Below, in pieces: positions 735 to 12,803 of a stretch of 12,803 bases of DNA. Each line of letters begins with the position of its first letter. Positions within the stretch are counted from its first letter, which is position 1. The stretch covers positions 1-12,803 of the forward strand of contig CAYQAD010000042.1 of assembly GCA_964415125.1 (NCBI GenBank), given 5' to 3'. The notes under the pieces are model-generated. The model made no database searches. It was not told the origin of the DNA and saw nothing but the letters and a program-made list of their open reading frames with translations. The position numbers and the translations under genes were made by a program. Origin of the DNA: an uncultured Phycisphaeraceae bacterium. Its GTDB lineage: Bacteria; Planctomycetota; Phycisphaerae; Phycisphaerales; UBA1924.

Positions 735-2615
735 ATGACTTCCGGCATTGTCACCGCAGTGCTCTTTGATAACCGGGTCGGTGGCGAGACTTTCCTATCG
801 GGTGGCGTGGTGCGGCTTGTGTCGACCGACCCCGGCAACAATCGCCCGCGCCTCTTCGACAATCGCGGGCGGCTTGAGATCACGGGTGCACGCGTCGAGG
901 ACGTTGACAGCTTCAAGACATTCGTGGGGAGTAGCACGCTGATCGGCGGCTCAAGCGTCGTTGAGGCTCTGTCTTTCAAGAACGAGGGCGGTGCGGTGCA
1001 GCGGGATGCTGCGCGGCTCTCGGTGCAGGACCTGGACAATCGCGCCACCGGCGACTTCTTGTTCCAGGGTGGTCGGATCGAGTTCGGAGATGTGTTCATC
1101 AATCAGGGTGGTGCGACGTTCGGCATGTCGGGCGGCGTGCTTCAAGGGCCGTCGGCGTCAAGCAGCGGCAGGGGTGATATCGAGAACGAGGGATCGTTCC
1201 AGGTTGCGGGTGGTCTGGTGCAAGCGATCGATGTCTTCAGGAACGGTTCCGGCGGGGTGTTTGACCTCGGTGGCGGCGACTTTCGCGTCGGTGCGATGAG
1301 CAACCGCTGGCAGGCGCAATTCTCCGGTGGTGTGCTCAACGTCCAGACGGACGTCGAGAACTCGGCCAACGCGATGCTGCGCGTGTTGCAGCAGGGGCGG
1401 ATTGCGCGGACGGGCGTGCCCGGGGCGAGTGTGCCGTTTCGCAACGCGGGCGTGATGGAGTTGTTCGGCGGGACGATCGAGGGCTTCAACACCTTCGAGA
1501 CGACATCCAGCGGCACGACAACGATCGGGGTGGCAGGCAGCGGTCGGCCCGCGCTGCTGAGCGTGCTCGACTTCACCACCAACGGCGACACAACGGTCGG
1601 CCCCGGTGGCAGGCTTCGGTCGAATGGTGTCGACGTGGGAGGCGGCGGGAGCCTTGTTGTTGCGGAGGGGGGTGATGTCACGCTCTCGCTGCTCGGCCGG
1701 GGTAATCTGGCCAATCGCGGCTCGATCGTCGTCGATGGCGCGAACGCTCGCCTGCGAGACATCGGGGACTTCGAGACTGTCGCGGGCTCGACGACCACGG
1801 TGGAAGATGGCGGCGTGGTTTCGAGTGTGACGCGGTACTTCAACAGCGGGCTTACGACCGTGGGGGGCGGTGGCCGGATCGCCGCTTCGCTCACCGAGGT
1901 TCGCGGCGGCGGCGAGATTCGCGTCGACGCGGGCGGTGTGCTCGCGAGCGGTGGCGGTGTGGTTGTGGAATCGGGCGCGACGCTGGCACTCGATGGCGGC
2001 GTGGTCGAGGTCGCGGGCGGCTTTGTTGAACTTGCAGGGGAGATGCTCGTCACGGGAGATGCGCGGGTGCTTTCCATCGGCGGGGGCGGCGCGGTGCTGA
2101 CCGGGCCGGGCTCGGACATCGTGGCGGGTAGCGCGGCTTCTCTCGATGCGACGGTGTACGGCGGCGGCAACGTGTTCGGCGTCGACGGGCCGATCGAGCT
2201 TCTCGGGTCGGTGGTGCCCGGCGCGGGTGCGGCCGCGTTGACGGCGGGGCAGATGGACTGGATCGGCGATGTCTCGCTCGGGGACGGGGCGGAGCTTGTG
2301 CTTGAGCTGCTCGCGCTCGACTCGCACGACTCGGTGGAGCTGCAATCCGGAACGGCGACCCTCGGCGGCACGCTCAGGGTGCGGCTAGGCCCGGACTACG
2401 TGCCGGCGGATGGGGACATCTTCGAGATCGTGACGACGCCGGGCGGTGTGATCTCGGGACAGTTCGCCGCGATCGACGCGCCGGCGCTCACGGGCAATCT
2501 GTTCTTTGACGTCGAGTACAGCGACGGGCTCACGACGCTTCGGGTGGTGCCGACGCCGGGGGTGGTGACGCTGATTGGAGTCGCGGGGCTGATCGGGACT
2601 CGTCGGCGGCGATAG
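735..2615 (+). CDS. Gly-rich repeat (beta-helix/adhesin-like) surface protein with a C-terminal PEP-CTERM-type exosortase sorting signal
   Basis: The 626-aa ORF has ~25-40 aa repeats built on N-[EQ]-G ... GG ... motifs. The C-terminus is VVPTPGVVTLIGVAGLIGTRRRR: a PEP-like motif (PTP variant), a hydrophobic helix and an Arg cluster. There is no convincing signal peptide after ATG 735, and the repeat pattern continues upstream of the ATG. Confidence 0.7.
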   Translation: MTSGIVTAVLFDNRVGGETFLSGGVVRLVSTDPGNNRPRLFDNRGRLEITGARVEDVDSFKTFVGSSTLIGGSSVVEALSFKNEGGAVQRDAARLSVQDLDNRATGDFLFQGGRIEFGDVFINQGGATFGMSGGVLQGPSASSSGRGDIENEGSFQVAGGLVQAIDVFRNGSGGVFDLGGGDFRVGAMSNRWQAQFSGGVLNVQTDVENSANAMLRVLQQGRIARTGVPGASVPFRNAGVMELFGGTIEGFNTFETTSSGTTTIGVAGSGRPALLSVLDFTTNGDTTVGPGGRLRSNGVDVGGGGSLVVAEGGDVTLSLLGRGNLANRGSIVVDGANARLRDIGDFETVAGSTTTVEDGGVVSSVTRYFNSGLTTVGGGGRIAASLTEVRGGGEIRVDAGGVLASGGGVVVESGATLALDGGVVEVAGGFVELAGEMLVTGDARVLSIGGGGAVLTGPGSDIVAGSAASLDATVYGGGNVFGVDGPIELLGSVVPGAGAAALTAGQMDWIGDVSLGDGAELVLELLALDSHDSVELQSGTATLGGTLRVRLGPDYVPADGDIFEIVTTPGGVISGQFAAIDAPALTGNLFFDVEYSDGLTTLRVVPTPGVVTLIGVAGLIGTRRRR

Positions 2616-3276: not shown

Positions 3277-5231
3277 TGCAGCACCATCTCACGATCGCGA
3301 CCAGCCTTGTTCTCGCGGCCTTCGGCGGCACGGCATCGTCGGCTCTTGCTTCGGACTCGGCCTCGGCGTTGACCACGCCCGAGCCCTCGGCGCGGGCCGC
3401 GCAGACGCCCGGTGCGCTCGTGTCTCCGATCGCCGATGCGCTCGCGTCCGTGCCCGATGACGTTCGCGCCTTTGACATGCACATCTCGACGCTGGCGAAC
3501 CCATTCATGCAGGGCCGAACGCCCGGCACGCCGGGTTCGGAGTTTGCCAAGGCGTACCTCGAGTTTTACTTCCGTGAGGCGGGGCTGGTGAAGCCGTTTG
3601 CGGAGGAGACGTCGAGCGGGCGTGCAGTCGCGGGCGAGATGTCGTACCGGCAGCCCTTCGAGATCTCGGGTCGCGCGGAGGTCGTCGCGCAAGCAATGAC
3701 CGCGTTCGAGGCCGACGGCCAGCGCATCGGCCGGCTGCAGCCCGGCGAGGACTTCAACGCCACCGGCTTGGGGCTCGGCGGTGCGGCGCAGGGCCAGGCC
3801 GTGTTCGTCGGGTACTCCACCGTCAATGGCGAGTACGACGCGTACGCGCCGGCCGAGGACCTCGATCTGACCGGCAAGGTCGCGCTGATGCTCCGATTCG
3901 AGCCCATGAACGACCAGGGCATGAGCCGATTCACGGGCGGGCAGTGGTCGGCGGCGGCGGGCTTTAATGGCAAGCTCCGCGCGGTCGCCGAGCGCAATCC
4001 CGCAGCGGTGGTCATCATCAACCCGCCGAACACGGCCGACCCGCGCGCCACGCGCCTGATGCCGAGCGGCGGCGGGGGTCGGCCGATCCTCGACGTGCCC
4101 GTCCTGCACATGTCCGCCGCGGCCGGGCAGCGGCTGATCGCGGGTCTCGATGCGCAGGGACGATCGCTGGCGACCTTCCAGCAACTCGCCGACACGCAGC
4201 CGACGATCGTGGAACTCGACGGCACCGTGCAGCTCTACGCCGACATCGAGCGCACATCGCTCAAGCCGGAGAACGTCGCGGGGCTCCTGCCCGGCAAGGG
4301 TGACCTCGCCGACGAGTACGTCGTGATCGGCGGCCACTTCGATCACACGGGCAACGGCGGCTTCGGCGCGCCCACGTCGATCTCGCAGGTGCACGAGGGC
4401 GCCGACGACAACGCGTCGGGCACCGCGGGCGTCCTAATCCTGGCCGACCGTCTCGCCCGGACCTACGCGGAGCTCCCCGAGGGCGCGAGCGCCCGATCGA
4501 TTCTGTTCATCGGTTTCGATGCGGAGGAGTCCGGGTTGAACGGCGCGTACCACTACGTCGCCAACCCGGTCGCGCCGATCGAGGACCATGTGCTCATGCT
4601 GAACCTCGACATGATCGGCCGCGTCGTCAATGGCGGGCTCTCGCTGCAGGGCGCGACGTCCGCCGTCGGCTTTGAGGATTGGCTGCAGCCGTACATGGAC
4701 GCTTCGCCGCTGAACTTTGCCGTGTCGCAGACCGTCGGCCGCCGGTCCGACCACGCGCCGTTCTACTTCGAGGGCAACGTGCCCGTGCTCTTCGGGATCA
4801 TAAACCCGCTGCACAACGACTACCACACCGACCGCGACGAGGCATGGAAGATCAACCGCGTCGGCAGCGTGCAGGTCATCGACTTCTTCGAGAACATCGC
4901 CACGGCGATCGCGCTCCAGCCTGAGCGGCTGCAGTACGCGGCACCCACCGCGCAGACCGCCGCCCCGCGCACACGCGTGGTCGTCGGCGTCCAGCCGCGC
5001 GACGTCCCGGAGGGCGGCGTGCTGCTCGCGAACGTCTCACCGAACACCTCGGCGTCCGCCGGCGGGCTCGTCGACGGAGACCGGATCATCGAGTGGGGCG
5101 GCAAGGAGGTCACCAACGTGACGGCGTGGGTCCAGATGCTCGCCCAGCACGAGCCCGACGACCTGGTCGACGTCGCGGTGATGCGCGACGGCAACCGCTT
5201 CGAGACAACGCTCACGCTCCGGCCGCGATAA
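3277..5231 (+). CDS. Secreted M28-family Zn aminopeptidase with PA (protease-associated) domain and C-terminal PDZ domain
   Basis: AGGAG lies 9 nt upstream of ATG 3277. The N-terminal signal peptide is MQHHLTIATSLVLAAFGGTASSALA. M28 metal-ligand motifs are present: GGHFDH, GADDNASG, GFDAEESGLNGAYHY, NLDMIG, DYHTDRDE. The C-terminus is PDZ-like (GVLLANVSP...GDRIIEWGG...). The track ORF (2652..) is an upstream frame extension without a start signal. Confidence 0.85.
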
Positions 5232-5282: not shown

Positions 5283-6302
5283 CTAGGTTCGCACGGAGAC
5301 GGTCACCCGCCGACGCTCATCCTCCTCGCGATGGAGCTTGACGGGCAGGAACGTCTCGATGACCGCGGCATTGGTCACCGAATGGCCCGTGAGGCTCCCC
5401 GTGCGGTAGGCCCCGCCCCCCGCGATCGCGAGGGGCAGCATGAGCTGGTCGGCCAGGTGCTTCCACACGGGCACGTCGGCGCTCAGGTACCGCCGAACGC
5501 TCGACGCGGCCCCGCGGGCGACCTTCTCGGCGGACACGCCGCGCTCGCCGAAGCCCGTGAACACCTCCGTGATGTCCTCGCGCGCAACCTCAATGCTGAC
5601 GATATTCCCCGGGCCGACGCCGTCGTCGAGTTGCTCGAGCGCAACCTCTTCCTCGGCCCAGCCGAGCTTCTCGCGCAGCACGTGCGCCTCGCGCTTCGCG
5701 ATCGAGCCTGGCAGGCCGGCGACCGTTGCGATCGCGCGTCTCCTCGTCACGGGCGTCGTATCAATGAGTTCCAGCGGGCGCAGTCGTGGCACCGGGGTAA
5801 TATCCACACGGATCCTGCCGCCGCCCGCCGGATAAAAACCGTGTCGCTCGAGCTGCAAGTCGACGGCGGGGCCCATCCGGTTGATGAGCGGCAGGAATGC
5901 GCTCTTAAGGAAGTGCACGCTCGGCGCATGCATGTTGTGCGTGCCGCCGGACAGCGTGATGGTGGAGGGCTCGCTCGCGGTGAGCAGCGCGGGCAGGACG
6001 GTCTGCAGCACCAGCGTGGTGCTCCCCGCCGTGCCGATCGAGAAGTCGTACGAGCCGCCCTTGATATCGCCGGGCGTGAACTCGATCGCTGTCGAGCCGA
6101 GCTCGGCGCCCGCGACCTCTCCACCGCACGCTGCGCGTGCCGCTTCGACCGAGGTGAGGTGCTGCCGCATGAGCCCGGGCTTGGCCCGGCCTGCCCGGAT
6201 GTTCTCGATCCGGAAGGGCTGGCCCGTGACCATGGAGAGCGCGAGCGACGTGCGCAGCACCTGCCCGCCGCCCTCGCCCTGTGCGCCATCGACACGGATC
6301 AT
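5283..6302 (-). CDS. rtcA: RNA 3'-terminal phosphate cyclase RtcA
   Basis: The translation aligns along its length with E. coli RtcA (DGAQGEGGGQ(V/I)LR...IRAGRAKPGL(M/L)RQHLT...LVLQTVLPAL...HGFYPAGGG...YLADQL(M/V)LP(L/M)A(I/L)AG). ATG 6302 overlaps the upstream gene's TGA (ATGA). An alternative GTG start lies at 6308. Confidence 0.9.
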   Translation of the reverse strand: MIRVDGAQGEGGGQVLRTSLALSMVTGQPFRIENIRAGRAKPGLMRQHLTSVEAARAACGGEVAGAELGSTAIEFTPGDIKGGSYDFSIGTAGSTTLVLQTVLPALLTASEPSTITLSGGTHNMHAPSVHFLKSAFLPLINRMGPAVDLQLERHGFYPAGGGRIRVDITPVPRLRPLELIDTTPVTRRRAIATVAGLPGSIAKREAHVLREKLGWAEEEVALEQLDDGVGPGNIVSIEVAREDITEVFTGFGERGVSAEKVARGAASSVRRYLSADVPVWKHLADQLMLPLAIAGGGAYRTGSLTGHSVTNAAVIETFLPVKLHREEDERRRVTVSVRT

Positions 6303-7561
6303 CGCCACACTCCTGCCCGTCGCCGGCGCTTTGGTGCGCGCGGCGCCGCCTCACTCGCAGCGCCACCGCTCGCAGCGGGGCGGCGCCAGTCCTCGCGCAT
6401 GATCCTGTTGATGAGCACGGCGGATGTGGCGTGCTCTCCCGCCATTACCTCGCGCACGATCTCGTGGCGGCTGCGCACGTGGGGGAACAGGCGATCGACG
6501 TAGTCCATCGCCACGTCCGACTGCAGCAACGGCACCTCGATCTTGATGTCGGCTCGGCCCGGCCGGATCAGCGCCGGGTCGAGGCGTTCGATGTGGTTGG
6601 TAGACATGATCAGGATCCGCCCGTTCTGCGGCGCGATGACACCGTCGATGCAGTTTAAGAAGCCGGAGAACGTGATGCCGTCGGCGTCCTCGCTCGAACG
6701 TTGGTGGAAGGCGCAGTCAACATCTTCGATGAGCACGATCGAGCCCTCACGCACACCCTCGAACGCGGTGAAGAGGTCCTCGTCCGATCGCATGTCCGCC
6801 AGCGGGATCACCGCGAGGCGGCGCTTGAGCTCGGAGGCGAGCGCGTGCGAGATGGAAGTCTTGCCCGTGCCGGGGTTGCCGTGCAGCAGAATGCCGAGGC
6901 GCCAGGGGATGCCCAGCCGCTCGTAGTCGTCGCGGCTCTCGGTGAACTCCCGCACGCGTGCTGCGAAGTCCTCGAAGAAGCGTGGCGGCAAACACAGCGT
7001 TCGCGGCTCGCGCAGCGGCAGCGTGATCGTGGAGCTTGCGCCGTACTTGCCGCACAGGTCGACCCGCTGGCGGTCTTCCATGACGTTCGCCCGCTGCTTG
7101 GTTGCGCTGAGCATGCGCGCAAGATCCGCCGGCGTGGCGAAGAGCACCTCCACGCGGATGATGAACCGGCGGACGAGATCCGCGCTTCCGCCCCCGGCCG
7201 CCTCCTCGCGGCGGATCGACACGCGGCACCATTTGCCGTGGACGCGTGCCCAGAAGCTGTCCGAACCGGCGGCGAAGGCCGACGCGGCAGCGCGTTCCTC
7301 GTAGTCGTCGGTCGTGCTGCGCACCTCGAGCGTTCGCGGGCCTCCGGGTCGGCGCGCGTGCTCGGTCAGCAGGCCGAGCCACGCGTCGTAGAGCGGGTGC
7401 TTCTCCCGGATCTCGATGACGCGCGTGAAGATGCCCCGCGCCAAGGAGAAGACGCGGTCGGGCAGCGCGCGGAGCTGATAGCCGATCCAGCCGGCGATCA
7501 TGAGCGTGAGTCCGCCTTGCACGACGGGCGATTCTTTGATGATGTTCTGTATCCAGTCCAT
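6299..7561 (-). CDS. BCS1-like AAA+ ATPase (BCS1_N-like N-terminal region with a hydrophobic segment, plus AAA domain)
   Basis: Walker A GILLHGNPGTGKTS, Walker B IVLIEDVDCAF, the BCS1-typical ITFSGFLNCIDGV, and sensor/Arg-finger RILIMSTNHIERLDPALIRPGRAD are present. The N-terminus MDWIQNII...GGLTLMIAGWIGY and the ...HGKWCRVSIRREE segment resemble the Bcs1 N-domain. Its stop overlaps the rtcA start. Confidence 0.85.
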   Translation of the reverse strand: MDWIQNIIKESPVVQGGLTLMIAGWIGYQLRALPDRVFSLARGIFTRVIEIREKHPLYDAWLGLLTEHARRPGGPRTLEVRSTTDDYEERAAASAFAAGSDSFWARVHGKWCRVSIRREEAAGGGSADLVRRFIIRVEVLFATPADLARMLSATKQRANVMEDRQRVDLCGKYGASSTITLPLREPRTLCLPPRFFEDFAARVREFTESRDDYERLGIPWRLGILLHGNPGTGKTSISHALASELKRRLAVIPLADMRSDEDLFTAFEGVREGSIVLIEDVDCAFHQRSSEDADGITFSGFLNCIDGVIAPQNGRILIMSTNHIERLDPALIRPGRADIKIEVPLLQSDVAMDYVDRLFPHVRSRHEIVREVMAGEHATSAVLINRIMREDWRRPAASGGAASEAAPRAPKRRRRAGVWR

Positions 7562-7623
7562 GATGCTTCAAGGTCAGTGCGCGCAGCGACAGCGCCGCCG
7601 CGAGGTCGTCAGCATGATGCCGC

Positions 7624-7643
7624 GTTCCGCAAATGGGCGGAAC
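7624..7643. other. Inverted repeat gttccgc-aaatgg-gcggaac (7-bp stem) in the rtcB-AAA intergenic gap
   Basis: A perfect 7-bp stem with a 6-nt loop lies 63 nt upstream of the AAA start codon. It could be an RNA hairpin in the inter-cistronic transcript or a protein-binding site. Confidence 0.25.
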
Positions 7644-7791
7644 CGGACGAACGGCGCACCATCTCGACGATGGCGGCCTCACGAGGTTGTCATGTGGGGG
7701 GTGGCCCCACCGGCGTCGCCGGCGGAGCGGCGACAGGTTACGTTGAAGCTTGGTTTCCGTGCAGCAATGGGCACCTCCTGTCGGGGACGCA

Positions 7792-7819
7792 AGTATCGGC
7801 GCCTCCGATTCCATGTCAA
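7792..7819 (-). promoter_or_regulatory. Candidate sigma70-like promoter (minus strand: TTGACA, 16-17 nt spacer, GATACT) in the rtcB-AAA gap
   Basis: It sits in a locally AT-rich patch just downstream of the rtcB stop and would read toward the AAA-rtcA genes. This is sequence similarity only, and the promoter rules of this lineage are unknown. Confidence 0.2.
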
Positions 7820-7866: not shown

Positions 7867-9363
7867 CTAGTCGTCGGGCTTGTCGCCGTCCTTGATGACA
7901 AACGTCGCCTGGAGCCGTGCGACTTCGCTCGCGAGCCCGGCGGCCTTCACGGATCTGAGTACCTCGTCGAAGTCCTTGTACGCAGCGGGCGCCTCGTCGA
8001 TGGGGTAGTTGCGGCAGTTCGTCAGGATGTCGCGCTCGGAGAACGACGCGTTGATCGCCGCCTGGTCGAGCGTGCGAGTCGCGGCCTTGCGGCCCATGAC
8101 TCGGCCGGCGCCGTGGTTCACGCTGAAGCACGAGAGCTCGGCGCCCGGATCGGCAACCATGACCGCCGAGCCCGCCTGTGGGTTGCCCGGGAGCAGGATG
8201 GGATGGCCGGTTGCTTCGAAGGGCGTGCCCTTGAGCGCGTGATGGCCGGCGGGGAAAGCGCGCGTGGCACCCTTGCGGTGCACCCAGTGCGGCTTGCCGT
8301 CGATGATCTCCTTGCGCGCAACGTTGTGGCTGATGAAGTACACGAGCTTGCCGTTGATGCCCGGGAAGACCTCCTGGAACGCTTCGAGAATCAGCGCGTT
8401 GATGAGCAGGTGGTTGAGCGTTGCGAAGTTCGCGCCGATCGCCATGTCGTCGAGGTACTTGCATGCCTCCTCGGTGCCGAGTGGGGCGTGGACGAGTTGG
8501 CGGTCGCCGCCGGGCAGCGGGATCCCCCAGGTCTTGAAGTGCTGCTCGAGCGCCTTGAACTGCCCCGCGGCCATGTCGTGCCCCAGGCCTCGCGAGCCGC
8601 AGTGGGAGAGGAACGCAACGCCGCCGTCGCGCAGGCCGAACACTTCGGCCGCCTCGCGGGCGCGCTCGCCCTCGCTGACTCGAACGATCTCGCACTCGCC
8701 GAAGTGGTTCCCTCCGCCGTAGGACCCGAGCTGGCGGATCTTCTTGGGAAATCTCTCATAGAACCGGGCGTCGCCCTTGTGGAGCTCGAGGCGGGCGCGC
8801 AGCGCGTCGGCCGAGCCGTCGTGCCCGGTATGGATGCTGTCCTCGCACCGATCGGCCCACTCGGGCGGAATGCCGAGCACGCGGCAGACCTCGTCGGTCG
8901 CACCCTCGGTGACGACGCGCGTGCCGACCTCGTGCGAGACCTCGCGTGACTTCGGCGCGTGCCGCTGCCCGCGCCCCGCGCCGGTCGGCGTGCGCTCACA
9001 GATCGCGTCGATGATCGCGCGCCGCGTGCGAGCGTCGCGCACGGCCTCCTCGTCGAGATCGAGCGCGAGAAGGCTCATGGAGCACTTGATGTCAACGCCG
9101 ACGGGCCCGGGGTAGATGTGCGAAGGGCTCGCCATCACGCACCCGACCGGCGTGCCGTAGCCGACGTGGGCGTCGGGGTTCAGGACAAGGTGCGACACGC
9201 CGGGCGCCATAGCCGAGTTGACGGTCTGGCGCAGGCAGCCCGCGTCAAAGGTCTCGCGGATCGCCGGCGTCCCGATGACGGTGACGGGCTTGCGGTCGTC
9301 CGGCAAGGGAAGGATGCCGGTTGCCTCGCCGGTCTCGATGATCGTGGTTGTGTCGCTTGCCAT
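7867..9363 (-). CDS. rtcB: RNA-splicing ligase RtcB (3'-phosphate/5'-OH RNA ligase)
   Basis: RtcB signature blocks are present: NPDAH, GVDIKCSM (active-site Cys), GGNHFGE, SHCGSRGLGH, SHNVA, HRKGATRAF, NHGAGRVMGRK. AGGAG lies 6 nt upstream of ATG 9363. Confidence 0.9.
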   Translation of the reverse strand: MASDTTTIIETGEATGILPLPDDRKPVTVIGTPAIRETFDAGCLRQTVNSAMAPGVSHLVLNPDAHVGYGTPVGCVMASPSHIYPGPVGVDIKCSMSLLALDLDEEAVRDARTRRAIIDAICERTPTGAGRGQRHAPKSREVSHEVGTRVVTEGATDEVCRVLGIPPEWADRCEDSIHTGHDGSADALRARLELHKGDARFYERFPKKIRQLGSYGGGNHFGECEIVRVSEGERAREAAEVFGLRDGGVAFLSHCGSRGLGHDMAAGQFKALEQHFKTWGIPLPGGDRQLVHAPLGTEEACKYLDDMAIGANFATLNHLLINALILEAFQEVFPGINGKLVYFISHNVARKEIIDGKPHWVHRKGATRAFPAGHHALKGTPFEATGHPILLPGNPQAGSAVMVADPGAELSCFSVNHGAGRVMGRKAATRTLDQAAINASFSERDILTNCRNYPIDEAPAAYKDFDEVLRSVKAAGLASEVARLQATFVIKDGDKPDD

Positions 9364-9542: not shown

Positions 9543-10670
9543 TTAGTGGGCGGCCTGGCCCTTGCGGATCAGCGAGCCGACCTGGTCGGCGAGGTCGCCC
9601 GAGCCGAGCACGAACGTCGCGTCGGTGCCCTTGAGGATCTCCTGCAGGGTTTCCAGCTCCTTCATTCGCGCGAGCACCGGGTTGTCCGCGAGGAGCTTCG
9701 CGGTGTTTGCCTGGCTGCGCGATGCCGCGGTCTCCTCGCGACGGCGAATGAGGTTGGCCTCGGCCTGCTTCTCCGCGACGATGACCTCGTTGAGGATCAC
9801 CTTCATGTCCCCGGGGAGGATGATGTCTCGCAGGCCGACGCCCGCGACCGCCACGCCGAAGGCGGCCGCTCGCGTCGCCAATCGGCTGCGGATCTCGTTG
9901 CCCACGTCGTCCTTGTCGCTGAGCAGCTTCTCGAGGCTTCGCCCGCCGACGGCGGCGCGGAGCTGGAGTTGCGCCTCGCGATAGAGCGACTGGGTCCAGT
10001 CGGCGACTTCCGTGACCGCCTTGACCGGGTCGGTGACGCGGTGCGTCGCGACGAGGTTGACCCGCAGCGTGACCTTGTCGGCCGTCATGATCTCCTGCCC
10101 CTGGATGTCGGCAACGTGCTCTCGCAGATCGACGGGCTTCCAGGTGACGGCCGGCCCGCCTCGCCAGTACACAAAGTGTCCCGGTCCGAGCTGGTCGACG
10201 AGCTTGCCCTCGCGGAAGAGCATGACGCGTTCGTGGGCCTCCACGCGGACGCCGTTGAAATACTTCGCGCCCGCGGGGAAGTTGAGGATGGACTCGAGCC
10301 GGGGGTGCTCGAAGCGGGGCTCGTTCACGTTGTGCCGCTCGACCTCGACCGCTGCCGGCCCGCTCCAGTACGCGTGGAGGCCGGGGCCGAGCACGGCTTC
10401 GAGCCGACCGTTGACCCAGGCGAGGGCGCGCTCGTCGTCCTTCAGGTCGACGATCGTGAGGCGGGATGCCAGCTGCGGCTCACGCGTGAGGGCTTCGAGC
10501 CGATCGTGCGTGAAGCGGGGCGTCAGCGTGTCCACAACCTCGAAGGTGTCGTGCCGACGGAGGGGCCAAGTTGCAACGCGGTGTGCACCGGGGTCGAGCA
10601 CCGCCCGGAGGTCGCCGTGGCGGAACCACAGGCCGAGTTCGTGCTTGCGGATTCGGAGTGTCTTCATCAT
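9543..10670 (-). CDS. SPFH/band-7 (stomatin/slipin-like) domain protein with no N-terminal transmembrane helix and three tandem N-terminal repeats
   Basis: The C-terminal ~200 aa is a classical SPFH domain (QEIMTADKVTLRVN...LRDIILPGDMKVILNEVIVAEKQAEANLIRRREETAAS...). AAAGGAG lies 8 nt upstream of ATGATG at 10670. The track ORF extends upstream to 11081 through low-complexity sequence with no start signal. Confidence 0.8.
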   Translation of the reverse strand: MMKTLRIRKHELGLWFRHGDLRAVLDPGAHRVATWPLRRHDTFEVVDTLTPRFTHDRLEALTREPQLASRLTIVDLKDDERALAWVNGRLEAVLGPGLHAYWSGPAAVEVERHNVNEPRFEHPRLESILNFPAGAKYFNGVRVEAHERVMLFREGKLVDQLGPGHFVYWRGGPAVTWKPVDLREHVADIQGQEIMTADKVTLRVNLVATHRVTDPVKAVTEVADWTQSLYREAQLQLRAAVGGRSLEKLLSDKDDVGNEIRSRLATRAAAFGVAVAGVGLRDIILPGDMKVILNEVIVAEKQAEANLIRRREETAASRSQANTAKLLADNPVLARMKELETLQEILKGTDATFVLGSGDLADQVGSLIRKGQAAH

Positions 10671-11028
10671 CACGTGGGCTCCTTTCGTTGGGCTCGTGAT
10701 GCGTGCGAGTGGGGGAGTTGCTTCGAATGCGAGCCAAGGGGTTCCTTGCGCTGCCCGCCCGTTTCTGCGGCGGGGTCCGGGTTGAGGCCCGACGCACGCC
10801 GCTCGTGCGCTCGCGGCGTGTCGCCCCATCGGCTCGCCGGTGGCGGGCGTCTTGGGGGAGGTGCCGCGAGCGTGTCGCGTCGATTGCCGGGCCGGTATCC
10901 GCCGGACCACGGGCCGCGTCGCCGGTGCTTCCCTCCGCCGGAGCGCCGCGGGGCGGCGTGCCGACAGCCGGGTCGCGGCGGGCATGCGGTTCGGTGGGCC
11001 CTTGGCCCACGGTGTGCTTTGGCCAGTC

Positions 11029-11097
11029 TGCTCTGGGCGGGATTCGAACCCGCAGGTCTTGCGACCCTGACCGTCCGTCATCTGGTTCAGAGATGCG
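11029..11097 (-). ncRNA. tRNA-like element B: T-arm plus acceptor 3' strand fragment with an upstream GNRA hairpin, directly abutting element A
   Basis: The minus strand reads ...CATCT-CTGAACC-AGATG...CAGGGTC-GCAA-GACCTG-GCGGG-TTCGAAT-CCCGC-CCAGAGC-A. It has a perfect T-arm and acceptor 3' half. No matching acceptor 5' strand or D-arm is present, so it is not a complete tRNA. Confidence 0.35.
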
Positions 11098-11169
11098 GGT
11101 TGCGTGCCGGACTCGAACCGGCAACAGCCGAGGGGTAACTCGGTGCTCTACCAATTGAGCAAACGCTTC
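11098..11169 (-). ncRNA. tRNA-like element A: near-complete cloverleaf with non-canonical features (candidate Y-RNA-like tRNA mimic or tRNA pseudogene)
   Basis: The minus strand reads GAAGCGT-TT-GCTC-AATTGGTA-GAGC-A-CCGAG-TTACCC-CTCGG-CTGTT-GCCGG-TTCGAGT-CCGGC-ACGCAAC-C. It has canonical D-arm and T-arm (TTCGA loop). The anticodon loop is only 6 nt, and the acceptor stem has two A-A mismatches with no encoded CCA. Confidence 0.5.
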
Positions 11170-11376
11170 ATGTCCGCCGGCAGAACCCGTGTTCGCGAAA
11201 CGCGGGACGCCGAGAGGCGCCGCGTCGCCGGACGGCGGGGCATGACAAAGGGGTGGGTGATGTTGAACTCGCCGCAGCACGGGCCCTGGTCGAATCGCGA
11301 GGCGGCCCGCAGTGCGTGGACCTCGCTGGGGCGGAGGCGGCGGCGTGTGTTGTGGATCGATCGGGCTTCCATGGTC

Positions 11377-11404: not shown

Positions 11405-11520
11405 CTTATGCACGACGCGTGCCAGCCTCGTCGGCCGGAGACGCCAGAACAAAAAACACCGTTTGGAGGCTGTGAACGCGGATGGCGATCGTTGCAGGTG
11501 CAGCGTCGCGTTTGGAATGT

Positions 11521-11565: not shown

Positions 11566-12803
11566 TTGGCAGCTCGCAAGTCCATCCCGCGTCCGACGGT
11601 GGTGCTCGGCATCCTCGGGACCACGCTCGACACCGGGAAGGGCCCCAAGCGGTGGGAGCGCTGGCGGCCGACCGTGTCGCTCTGCCAGCACGAAGATCTC
11701 CTTGTCGATCGCCTCGAGCTGTTGCACGATCAGCGGGCGTCGCGCCTCGCGGAGACGATCATCGCGGACATCGCGTCGGTCTCGCCCGAGACGCGGGTCG
11801 TCCAGCACCTCGTGGACATCACCGACCCGTGGGACTTCGAGGAGGTCTACGGCTCGCTGCACGAGTTCGCGGCGGGTTACGACTTCGACACCGAGCGCGA
11901 GGACTACCTCGTCCACATCACCACGGGCACGCACGTCGCGCAGATCTGCAACTTCCTCCTCACCGAGGCCCGCTACTTCCCCGCGCGGCTGATCCAGACC
12001 AGCCCGCCCCGCGGCAACAAGGGGCGAAGCACCGACAGCCCCGGGCTGTTCAGCATCATCGACCTCGACCTTTCGCGGTACGACCGCCTCGCGGCACGAT
12101 TCGAGCGCGAGCACACCGACGCGATCGCCTCGCTCAAGGGGGGCATCGAGACGAGAAACCCGTCGTTCAACCGGCTCATCGAACGCATCGAGCACGTCGC
12201 GGCACGGACGACCGATCCGATCCTGATCACGGGGCCCACGGGTGCCGGCAAGTCACGCCTGGCGGGGCGGATCTTCGAGCTCCGCAAGCATCGCCGGCTG
12301 GTGCGGGGCGAGCTCGTCGAGGTGAACTGCGCGACCCTTCGCGGCGATGGCGCGATGTCGGCGCTCTTCGGGCACAAGAAGGGCGCGTTCACCGGCGCGG
12401 CCTCCGACCGCGCGGGACTGTTGCGGTCCGCCGATGGCGGCACGCTGTTCCTCGATGAGATCGGCGAGCTCGGGCTCGACGAGCAGGCAATGCTGCTCCG
12501 GGCGATCGAGGAGAAACGGTTCCTCTCGCTCGGTGCCGACACGGAGACATCGAGCGATTTCCAGCTCATCGCGGGGACCAACCGCGATCTTGCGGAGCGC
12601 GTACGCAGCGGCGAGTTCCGGGAGGACCTGCTCGCGCGGATCAACCTTTGGACCTTCGAGATGCCCGCGCTGCGTGATCGCCCGGAAGACATCGAGCCGA
12701 ACCTTGACTACGAGCTGGAGCGATACGCGCGGGACCGCGGGCAGTTCGTGCGGTTCAGCGCCGAGGCGAGGTCGGCGTTTCTGGCGTTCGCGACCGGGCC
12801 CGA
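11566..12803 (+). CDS. rtcR: Sigma54-dependent transcriptional regulator RtcR (N-terminal CARF-type sensor domain plus AAA+ sigma54-activation domain); 3' end beyond the window
   Basis: The translation aligns along its length with E. coli RtcR: ...WERWRPTVSLCQHEDLLVDRLELLHD...SPET...DPWDFEEVYG...YLVHITTGTHVAQIC...ARLIQTSPP...IDLDLSRY..., then Walker A ITGPTGAGKS, GAFTGA, LFLDEIGEL, and the ESR-like GEFREDLLARINLW. The start is inferred at TTG 11566, with a possible GTG at 11599. The frame is open to the window end, so it is absent from the ORF track. Confidence 0.85.
   Translation, partial: MAARKSIPRPTVVLGILGTTLDTGKGPKRWERWRPTVSLCQHEDLLVDRLELLHDQRASRLAETIIADIASVSPETRVVQHLVDITDPWDFEEVYGSLHEFAAGYDFDTEREDYLVHITTGTHVAQICNFLLTEARYFPARLIQTSPPRGNKGRSTDSPGLFSIIDLDLSRYDRLAARFEREHTDAIASLKGGIETRNPSFNRLIERIEHVAARTTDPILITGPTGAGKSRLAGRIFELRKHRRLVRGELVEVNCATLRGDGAMSALFGHKKGAFTGAASDRAGLLRSADGGTLFLDEIGELGLDEQAMLLRAIEEKRFLSLGADTETSSDFQLIAGTNRDLAERVRSGEFREDLLARINLWTFEMPALRDRPEDIEPNLDYELERYARDRGQFVRFSAEARSAFLAFATGP

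Follow-up and report, generated by a model that had tools for sequence, protein, structure and literature searches.

Bcs1 (PMC7994207) and YjoB (PMC9565160) provide the precedents for an ATPase ring that encloses a folded protein and moves or remodels it. Rtc operons, in turn, are induced by broken tRNAs: their regulator RtcR is switched on by tRNA fragments that carry a cyclic phosphate, and induction depends on RtcA, which is needed to generate this ligand (PMC7790460). Sensory upstream open reading frames (uORFs) are exemplified by toiL, an 8-codon uORF in which different antibiotics that target the ribosome cause stalling, whereby the structure downstream is remodelled (PMC12121999). Here we describe a locus that brings elements of this kind together. 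The window, i.e. the whole stretch of DNA that was analyzed (12,803 nt, contig CAYQAD010000042.1 of an uncultured Phycisphaeraceae bacterium), carries between the RNA-repair genes rtcB and rtcA a gene for a Bcs1-like AAA+ ATPase, preceded by a leader with a short uORF.

Each of the three elements (Bcs1-like ATPases, Rtc operons and sensory uORFs) is known by itself, and their combination was not found in the literature searched. The same search returned no connection between Bcs1 and Rtc (a prior mention in the RNA-repair survey of Burroughs and Aravind 2016 is possible); a jumbo-phage paper treats BCS1 and RtcB in unrelated sections only. Bacterial Bcs1-like ATPases are numerous, and in that literature only the distant, soluble YjoB has been characterized experimentally. 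The placement among rtc genes is the first contextual handle on the function of a bacterial Bcs1-like ATPase.

A Bcs1-like ATPase gene between rtcB and rtcA

On the minus strand of the window, a sigma-54 promoter is followed by a tRNA-like RNA, an SPFH gene, rtcB, a 305-bp spacer, the ATPase gene and rtcA. Together with the divergent rtcR, these genes are a complete RtcR/sigma-54 RNA-repair operon. rtcB and rtcA lie in one transcription unit (same strand, no terminator predicted between them). The G+C content of the window is approximately 68%, at which long spurious open reading frames (ORFs) are common. The 420-codon ORF at 6299-7561 (minus strand) is a real gene and not a chance high-GC frame, with homologues down to an expect value (E) of 1e-269. 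The ratio of non-synonymous to synonymous substitution rates was 0.08 against a 90%-identical orthologue (locus L051) and 0.2-0.28 against orthologues of about 70% identity; the gene is under purifying selection.

A first-pass annotation of this stretch had assigned the ATPase to the BCS1 clade by its hallmark motifs, and every motif quoted there was found in the ORF. The protein has a single classical AAA module in which Walker A, an ED Walker B, the sensor-1 Asn and the arginine-finger motif are all present. An ED instead of a DE in Walker B is exceptional among classical AAA proteins, and it is common to YjoB and Bcs1 (PMC9565160). When the ATPase was compared with the Protein Data Bank (PDB) using phmmer, the best matches were yeast and mouse Bcs1 (E = 1.5e-29). 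The alignment joined residues 18-343 to residues 56-386 of yeast Bcs1 and so covered transmembrane helix, Bcs1-specific domain and AAA core. An AlphaFold2 model of the monomer, built on 29 family members (mean predicted local distance difference test score 77.8, with low confidence at residues 73-98), consists of a helix (12-45), a beta-rich domain (46-182) and the AAA module. Searching the PDB with this model by Foldseek returned full-length Bcs1 structures as the top 17 matches (E down to 3.5e-27), with YjoB next; the alignment to full-length Bcs1 in entry 8tp1 comprised 413 columns (E = 3.5e-27, TM-score 0.58). Finally, hhalign matched the family to a profile of canonical bacterial proteins with the domains BCS1_N, AAA and AAA_lid_BCS1 at 100% probability (E = 1.2e-78, residues 3-392).

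The Pfam domain profiles were less uniform. Only AAA exceeded its threshold (3.1e-22), and BCS1_N scored 21.8 bits against a cut-off of 28.1 bits, so that of the BCS1_N plus AAA search proposed in the annotation one half was positive and the other sub-threshold. AAA_lid_BCS1 (PF25426) gave no match in any of the 59 orthologue clusters (distant bacterial homologues do match it), and hhalign still aligns through residue 392. The agreement of sequence, fold and profile-profile searches supports the BCS1-clade assignment of the annotation, and we consider this classification firm.

The annotation had further described an N-terminal hydrophobic anchor. A conserved hydrophobic helix spans residues 12-30, which align with the transmembrane helix of Bcs1 in both phmmer and hhalign and form part of the one long helix (12-45) modelled by AlphaFold2. 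Its flanks, acidic on the N-terminal and basic on the C-terminal side, fit an N-out/C-in topology. On the other hand, the helix is only moderately hydrophobic. We retain it as a candidate anchor, and an association of the ATPase with the membrane is probable.

The leader of the ATPase gene

The spacer between rtcB and the ATPase gene, overlooked in the first-pass annotation, contains a conserved leader element, which emerged when the 420 nt upstream of the ATPase start were aligned for 18 loci. With a length of about 200 nt, the leader accompanies the ATPase gene in almost all orthologues and is present in rtc-linked and unlinked loci alike. A covariance model of it (R1, quickly calibrated and with correspondingly rough E-values) found one copy per orthologous locus and none elsewhere in approximately 1 Mb, including the distant BCS1-like loci searched. 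Rfam searches with the whole window and with the leader alone returned no family for the leader, and a uORF scan upstream of 22 distant BCS1-like genes revealed no equivalent. The leader is new.

The leader lies behind a sigma-70-type promoter, which is the only promoter-like match in 6.5 kb on both strands. Its hexamers (-35 TTGAC, -10 ATAMT) are kept in about 18 of 20 orthologous leaders. Having its own promoter and leader, the ATPase gene is not simply a cistron of the sigma-54 operon. Further downstream, the leader motif GACAGGAGGUG includes AGGAGGUG (7779-7772), a perfect Shine-Dalgarno (SD) sequence. Six nucleotides past it, at 7767, a uORF starts with TTG, continues for eight more codons and ends with TAA at 7740-7738 (MLHGNQAST*). 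The uORF has exactly nine codons in 19 of 22 leaders, and the variants (10, 12 and 14 codons) differ by whole codons. Only TTG and ATG occur as starts and only TGA and TAA as stops, i.e. substitutions are exclusively start-to-start and stop-to-stop. The encoded peptides are not conserved (e.g. MLHGNQAST, MLHEYRNSL, MTLAIDSQF and MRTGLSSFM), and a functional leader peptide was rejected on these grounds. A constant length combined with a variable peptide is expected if the act of translation matters and not its product. From these patterns of substitution, the uORF is probably translated.

Three helices can form around and behind the uORF: (i) P0, in which GACAGG (7782-7777) pairs with CCUGUC (7737-7732), enclosing the uORF and overlapping the SD sequence; (ii) P1, between GUCGCCG (7734-7728) and CGGCGAC (7721-7715); and (iii) P2, between CUCCGCCGG (7727-7719) and CCGGUGGGG (7713-7705). 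Since P0 shares bases with P1 and P1 with P2 (alignment columns 53-55 and 70-72), the RNA can adopt either the state P0+P2 or the state P1. Pair counts were taken from a 17-sequence alignment. P2 was paired in 88.6% of cells, with four covarying pairs (12 cells) and slid controls at 28-50%. The corresponding values for P1 were 91.6%, one covarying pair and 20-71%. P0 was paired in 95% of cells and invariant. In the window and in its near relatives, the lowest folding energy belongs to the state P0+P2 (-37.1 vs -31.5 kcal/mol for P1).

This architecture suggests how the leader could read ribosome status. With no ribosome on the uORF, the resting state would be P0+P2. A ribosome that initiates or stalls in the first uORF codons would cover GACAGG, break P0, free CCUGUCGCCG for P1 and block P2, while a ribosome at the uORF stop would cover the 5′ arm of P1, so that P2 could form. 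By analogy with known leaders of similar layout, we infer a ribosome-stall sensor, which would make expression of the ATPase-rtcA pair responsive to the state of the ribosome. Being compact, showing clear covariation and lying outside Rfam, the leader is directly testable with reporters.

Linkage to rtc genes and proposed function

The ATPase family comprises about 59 clusters at 44-97% identity; the next matches, at 31-35%, are generic bacterial proteins annotated as 'chaperone BCS1'. All named family members stem from Phycisphaerae/Planctomycetota metagenome assemblies. We examined 45 genome and 80 metagenome loci, plus contigs for individual proteins, and located RtcA, RtcB, RtcR and SPFH of the window in the fetched loci by tblastn. 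Counts refer to loci and not to independent lineages, and some loci are near-duplicates. An orthologue was termed rtc-linked when rtcB lay directly upstream and/or rtcA directly downstream, which was the case for 16 of about 26 informative loci (the window, L001, L002, L003, L005, L006, L008, L010, L014, L015, L050, L051, L052, L056, L058 and L131). Linked members occur throughout the family, at identities of 55% to 97%. By tblastn, rtc genes were found at none of more than 100 distant BCS1-like loci. Within rtc operons, the Bcs1-like ATPase occurs only in this Phycisphaerae subfamily and is not a regular component of such operons. The association is therefore real and specific to this lineage; the ATPase gene is repeatedly partnered with rtc genes, but not obligatorily so.

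In a neighbour-joining tree, the rtc-linked members form two clades, with unlinked members between them. The loci counted as unlinked are L004, L007, L009, L011, L012, L013, L016, L053, L132 and the P0047 contig. A conserved protein partner was sought in the non-rtc loci; none was found, and their neighbours vary. Just upstream of the ATPase leader, two loci without an intact rtcB retain C-terminal remnants of RtcB (FVIKDGDKxDD; FV[IT]KDGDKxDD-like), at approximately 4200-4300 in L004 and 7600-7720 in L010, which points to losses of rtcB from an ancestral linked arrangement. In addition, the C-terminus of one ATPase orthologue (P0052) is ARFVIKDGDKADD, the RtcB tail. These remnants and this tail are footprints of rearrangement at the junction of rtcB and the leader.

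At the opposite end of the gene, the ATPase stop codon overlaps the rtcA start codon in an ATGA (gtgtggcgATGAtc, context caggagtgtggcgATGAtccgt). The SD sequence of rtcA, AGGAG at 6314-6310, lies 7 nt upstream, within codons of the ATPase C-terminal tail. The overlap and the upstream SD sequence are kept in all nine loci of the clade to which the window belongs (the window, L001, L002, L003, L005, L006, L051, L052 and L131; 65-97% identity), and this conservation argues for selection on co-expression. As the ATPase stop overlaps the rtcA start, rtcA would also receive RtcR-independent, leader-controlled expression. RtcA is needed to make the ligand of RtcR, so the overlap may plausibly be of advantage by supplying RtcA from an internal promoter that does not depend on RtcR. 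In the second rtc-linked clade, the ATPase gene and rtcA are separated by 20-27 nt or, with an intervening gene, by about 700 nt.

Two loci with unusual junctions were noted. In L014 (9407-9955; L015 has an equivalent), the intervening gene encodes a 182-aa N6-adenine methyltransferase-like protein (PF10237, 2.8e-13). In L056 (2979-3461), the ATGA junction is followed by an apparent short remnant of the RtcA N-terminus (IHINGSQ...), a gap of about 480 nt and then an intact rtcA, an arrangement that suggests a local duplication or insertion.

The first-pass annotation had read the overlap with rtcA from the sequence, where it is plainly visible, and had named synteny elsewhere as a test. With rtcB and/or rtcA beside the orthologue in 16 loci, the idea that the gene is never syntenic with rtc genes is refuted. 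Its further suggestion of a functional partnership with the cyclase fared less evenly: the conserved overlap speaks for it, whereas the unlinked loci, the variable spacing in the second clade and the separate promoter and leader of the ATPase gene speak against it.

The ATPase is not an RNA-end-healing enzyme. Its job is probably the handling of protein rather than RNA. In the reading we prefer, to which we give about an even chance, the ATPase is a translation-stress-regulated Bcs1-like protein remodeller or translocase, probably membrane-associated, that has come to serve the RNA-damage response. If it works as Bcs1 and YjoB do, its ring would take a fully or partly folded protein into a chamber and use ATP to remodel or move it, the most likely site of action being the inner membrane, on its cytoplasmic side. 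The substrate could be a protein tied to damaged translation, e.g. a membrane-stalled ribosome-nascent chain complex or an imported ribotoxin. The gene would be wired to translation damage twice, first by its placement in the RtcR/sigma-54 operon and second by its own sigma-70-type promoter and uORF leader. If this is true, the response of these bacteria to ribotoxic stress or tRNA damage has a protein-handling arm beside RNA repair.

Several observations weigh against this reading. The mean Kyte-Doolittle hydropathy of residues 12-30 is only 1.02, below the classical threshold for transmembrane segments. Among the 26 or so orthologous loci whose flanks were long enough to judge, about 10 lack rtc genes in the vicinity and have neighbours of diverse kinds (e.g. 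sugar metabolism, ATP synthase and one baeRF_family12/Host_attach protein), so that the rtc link could be a regulatory convenience. The tree is crude, and all orthologues come from assemblies of uncultured organisms. As regards the leader, P0 never varies and is thus uninformative for covariation, and covariation in P1 amounts to one pair with about two independent events. Folding z-scores of the whole leader are modest (median about -1.2), and those of its last 60 nt are not significant. No output element (terminator, Rho-utilisation site or helix sequestering the ribosome-binding site) could be identified: an intrinsic-terminator scan found no U-tract terminator on the minus strand between rtcB and rtcA, RNAalifold gave no consensus structure for the 70 nt before the ATPase start and no conserved helix that would sequester the ribosome-binding site, and only a short C-rich, G-poor tract (about 25 nt) follows P2. 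As a candidate Rho-utilisation site this tract was rejected, the excess of C over G being limited to a length too short to claim one.

Among the alternatives, the ATPase might be a dedicated physical partner of RtcA and/or RtcB (a chaperone, assembly factor or membrane tether) held at fixed stoichiometry by translational coupling. The ATGA overlap with its SD sequence in the ATPase tail would suit this, as would the position of the rtc-linked gene, which is always between rtcB and rtcA. However, about 10 orthologous loci keep an intact gene and leader without any rtc neighbour, spacing in the second clade ranges from 20 to 700 nt with the methyltransferase-like gene intervening in L014, and most rtcBA operons of other bacteria are known to function without such a protein. 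In favour of a partner, protein-level regulation does exist in the system, given that RtcA and RtcB are reported to bind RtcR (PMC9650030). On balance, we regard a dedicated partner as unlikely, if still credible.

Another alternative is that the promoter, leader and ATPase gene are a passenger cassette without functional relation to RNA repair, which one or two lineages of Phycisphaerae acquired between rtcB and rtcA, with the overlap a by-product of compaction. Such a module would be self-sufficient (promoter, leader and coding sequence), it is found in unrelated contexts, and linked and unlinked members interleave on the tree. Yet linkage extends across the family depth noted above, the RtcB remnants in L004 and L010 favour losses over repeated insertions, the conserved overlap and SD sequence indicate selection on co-expression, and RtcR and the uORF leader both plausibly respond to damaged translation. 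A passenger cassette therefore appears doubtful, with a minor share of the probability.

A more far-reaching version of the preferred reading, which we hold to be quite improbable, takes the leader as a new class of stall sensor that fires a 'first-responder' pair, a Bcs1-type membrane translocase and RtcA, without RtcR. Leader-made RtcA would convert 3′-phosphate tRNA fragments to the 2′,3′-cyclic-phosphate ligands that switch on RtcR, closing a feed-forward loop. Meanwhile, the ring would clear protein damage, expelling or dismantling an imported ribotoxin or removing ribosome-nascent chain complexes jammed at the membrane. It would then be the bacterial equivalent of what the Cdc48/Vms1 arm does in the ribosome quality control of eukaryotes.

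A role as anti-phage or abortive-infection effector or sensor, like IetA or TRIP13, is very improbable. PADLOC reported IetA (47 bits) and TRIP13 (28 bits), and an N-terminally truncated relative of 44% identity (P0059) is part of an island that also contains phage-tail, SMC-like, HerA-like and UvrD genes. But the PADLOC matches are confined to the Walker A region or to the generic AAA core, no partner gene (IetS protease or HORMA protein) is present, full-length similarity is to Bcs1, and the neighbours of true orthologues are housekeeping or rtc genes. We rejected the defence role for the partial matches and the missing partner genes. Scarcely credible, finally, is an orthodox Bcs1 equivalent that exports folded Rieske or another cofactor-bearing protein for the assembly of respiratory complexes: the architecture is shared with Bcs1, but no Rieske, cytochrome bc or Tat genes occur in the orthologous loci examined, bacteria export Rieske via Tat (PMC7994207), and the regulation points to translation stress.

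Neighbouring features and comparison with known systems

The features of the window are compiled in Table 1.

Table 1. Features of the ATPase gene, its leader and the surrounding operon in the 12,803-nt window
Feature	Position	Strand	Evidence or remark
rtcA (RNA 3′-terminal phosphate cyclase)	5283-6302	-	Pfam RTC 6.9e-81; NCBIfam NF003246 cyclase equivalog 1.3e-132
ATGA overlap (rtcA ATG 6302-6300, ATPase stop TGA 6301-6299)	6299-6302	-	sequence
Bcs1-like AAA+ ATPase coding sequence (420 aa + TGA, ATG start)	6299-7561	-	ORF; Pfam AAA 3.1e-22
Arg/Lys-rich C-terminal tail (10 K+R in 32 residues)	6302-6397	-	last codons double as rtcA SD
AAA module, residues ~195-390	6392-6979	-	Pfam, PDB alignment, motifs
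RPGR (arginine fingers), residues 333-336	6554-6565	-	motif
Sensor-1 STN, residues 320-322		-	motif
TFSGFLN (ITFSGFLNCIDGV), residues 297-303	6653-6673	-	motif
Walker B IVLIED (IVLIEDVDCAF), residues 275-280	6722-6739	-	motif; ED instead of DE
Walker A GNPGTGKT, residues 228-235	6857-6880	-	motif
Equivalent of the Bcs1-specific (seal-forming) N-domain, residues ~46-182	7016-7426	-	AlphaFold2 beta-rich domain; Foldseek and hhalign alignment
Conserved hydrophobic helix SPxVQGGLxLMxAGWLGYQL, residues 12-30, candidate membrane anchor	7472-7528	-	family conservation; basic stretch next to it
Remaining leader to ATPase ATG	7562-7703	-	poorly conserved; GC-rich hairpins vary; no recognisable ATPase SD
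Switch region (P0 3′ arm, P1, P2)	7704-7737	-	pair counts, covariation, covariance model
Leader translation unit (GACAGG 7782-7777, SD 7779-7772, uORF 7767-7738)	7738-7782	-	uORF tables
Sigma-70-type promoter TTGACA-16-GATACT	7792-7819	-	10/12 matches
rtcB (RNA 3′-P/2′,3′-cP ligase)	7867-9363	-	PF01139 5.6e-102
SPFH/band-7 (HflK-like) gene	9543-10673	-	PF01145 1.4e-30
tRNA-like RNA in operon leader	11097-11169	-	ARAGORN 'tRNA-???'; Rfam tRNA 39.1 bits; conserved in L051
Sigma-54 promoter TGGCACgcgtcGTGCA	11409-11424	-	motif match; equivalents in relatives
rtcR, divergent, extends past window end	11566-12803	+	PF06956 9.4e-84 (CARF-like RtcR domain); PF00158 1.6e-48 (sigma-54 activator)

An equivalent of the sigma-54 site (TGGCAC-N5-xTGCA) was found in seven of nine related loci. 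The tRNA-like RNA lies approximately 230 nt downstream of this promoter. Its D and T arms are normal, ARAGORN assigns no anticodon to its loop of 6 nt (UUACCC), and the acceptor stem contains two A.A mismatches. It may be a decoy or sensor RNA akin to Y RNA or YrlA, here in an operon without Rsr. A second T-arm-like element, GGTTCGAATCC, follows at about 11030-11075 (minus strand). A 74-codon ORF (11148-11372, minus strand) starts just past the sigma-54 promoter, ends within the tRNA-like RNA and shares the GACAGGAGG Shine-Dalgarno motif with the ATPase leader; of its differences from L051, about 11 are synonymous and about 17 non-synonymous, so that it is at most a candidate coding sequence.

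In several rtc-linked relatives, the interval from rtcR to rtcB contains Ro60/Rsr, YrlA and ordinary tRNA genes (tRNA/YrlA coordinates: L001 5873-6169; L006 5565-5896; L051 3927-4098; L010 7330-7469). YrlA (RF02553) reached 75 bits in L001 and L010. The tRNAs (Pro-UGG, Arg-ACG, Leu-CAG, His-GUG and Met-CAU) appear normal. As anticodon nucleases classically attack Arg and His tRNAs, these genes may provide spare copies in response to damage. The SPFH gene, situated between the tRNA-like RNA and rtcB, has a counterpart in just one of the related loci, L051. Membrane AAA proteases such as FtsH are organised by SPFH proteins, and the gene may be relevant to a membrane-associated Bcs1-like ring. 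To the left of the operon, a 626-aa Gly/Val-rich repeat protein (735-2615, plus strand; no Pfam match, PEP-CTERM-like C-terminus VPTPG...TRRRR) and an M28 peptidase with PA and PDZ domains (3300-5231, plus strand) are unrelated to the Rtc and ATPase genes.

Three further family loci stood out. In L017 (8001-8815), the orthologue has an internal deletion (residues ~135-273) and its leader has lost the uORF start; this gene is probably a decaying pseudogene, which fits a joint decay of leader and gene. In L046 (6205-7319; 9349-10773), a solitary ATPase copy has three small genes upstream and, downstream, a gene whose 474-aa product is of unknown function. One of the small genes belongs to the eRF1-like baeRF_family12/Host_attach family (Pfam 1.7e-10 and 5.4e-07), and an eRF1-like factor beside an AAA+ protein recalls Vms1-Cdc48, in this single locus. 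The 44%-identical P0059 (L133, 7001-8125) lacks the N-terminal helix. Its setting is a phage-like island that also includes LexA-like and DUF5131 genes, and it may be a soluble offshoot with a different role.

Compared with known systems, the ATPase is closest to mitochondrial Bcs1/BCS1L, the heptameric AAA translocase of folded Rieske protein. Both have an N-terminal helix, a Bcs1-specific domain and one AAA module, as well as the ED Walker B, TFSG(L/F)LN..DGV and RPGR, and Bcs1 is the best match in the PDB by sequence and by fold. Unlike Bcs1, the ATPase of the window is bacterial and only about 25% identical to it, has a sub-threshold BCS1_N and no Pfam AAA_lid_BCS1, and ends in an Arg-rich tail. 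It also has no Rieske or bc1 genes nearby, residing instead within an RNA-repair operon behind a uORF leader, and is known here from its sequence and a monomer model. With the uncharacterised 'chaperone BCS1' proteins of Planctomycetota (PF08740+PF00004+PF25426) it shares full-length homology and the conserved GGLxLM N-terminal helix; these differ in that identity is 31-35%, that their more than 100 loci are without rtc genes and that the 22 scanned upstream regions are without the uORF leader. Bacillus subtilis YjoB (PDB 7W42), a soluble hexameric substrate-specific chaperone, is the next fold match after Bcs1 (E = 1e-14) and resembles the ATPase in the ED Walker B and a chamber-forming N-domain (PMC9565160). 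In contrast to the ATPase, however, YjoB is cytoplasmic, has no hydrophobic N-terminal helix, is restricted to Bacillales and stands in an unrelated gene context.

The operon itself resembles the rtcBA and rsr-yrlBA-rtcBA operons of E. coli and Salmonella in its divergent rtcR with a CARF-like domain, its sigma-54 promoter and the order of rtcB and rtcA, and relatives of the window carry Rsr (Ro60) and YrlA as those operons do. What sets the window apart is the ATPase gene, inserted between rtcB and rtcA together with a promoter and a leader of its own, as well as the SPFH gene and the tRNA-like RNA. The leader, for its part, is reminiscent of toiL-topAI, ermCL, the cat/cmlA leaders and tnaC, in which a short, strongly initiated uORF precedes alternative helices that a ribosome would remodel. 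It has no sequence relation to any of them and no Rfam family, neither a terminator nor a helix sequestering the ribosome-binding site was found, and a response to stalling is proposed by analogy. What it does have in common with stall-sensing leader uORFs is that the length of the peptide is conserved rather than its sequence (PMC12121999).

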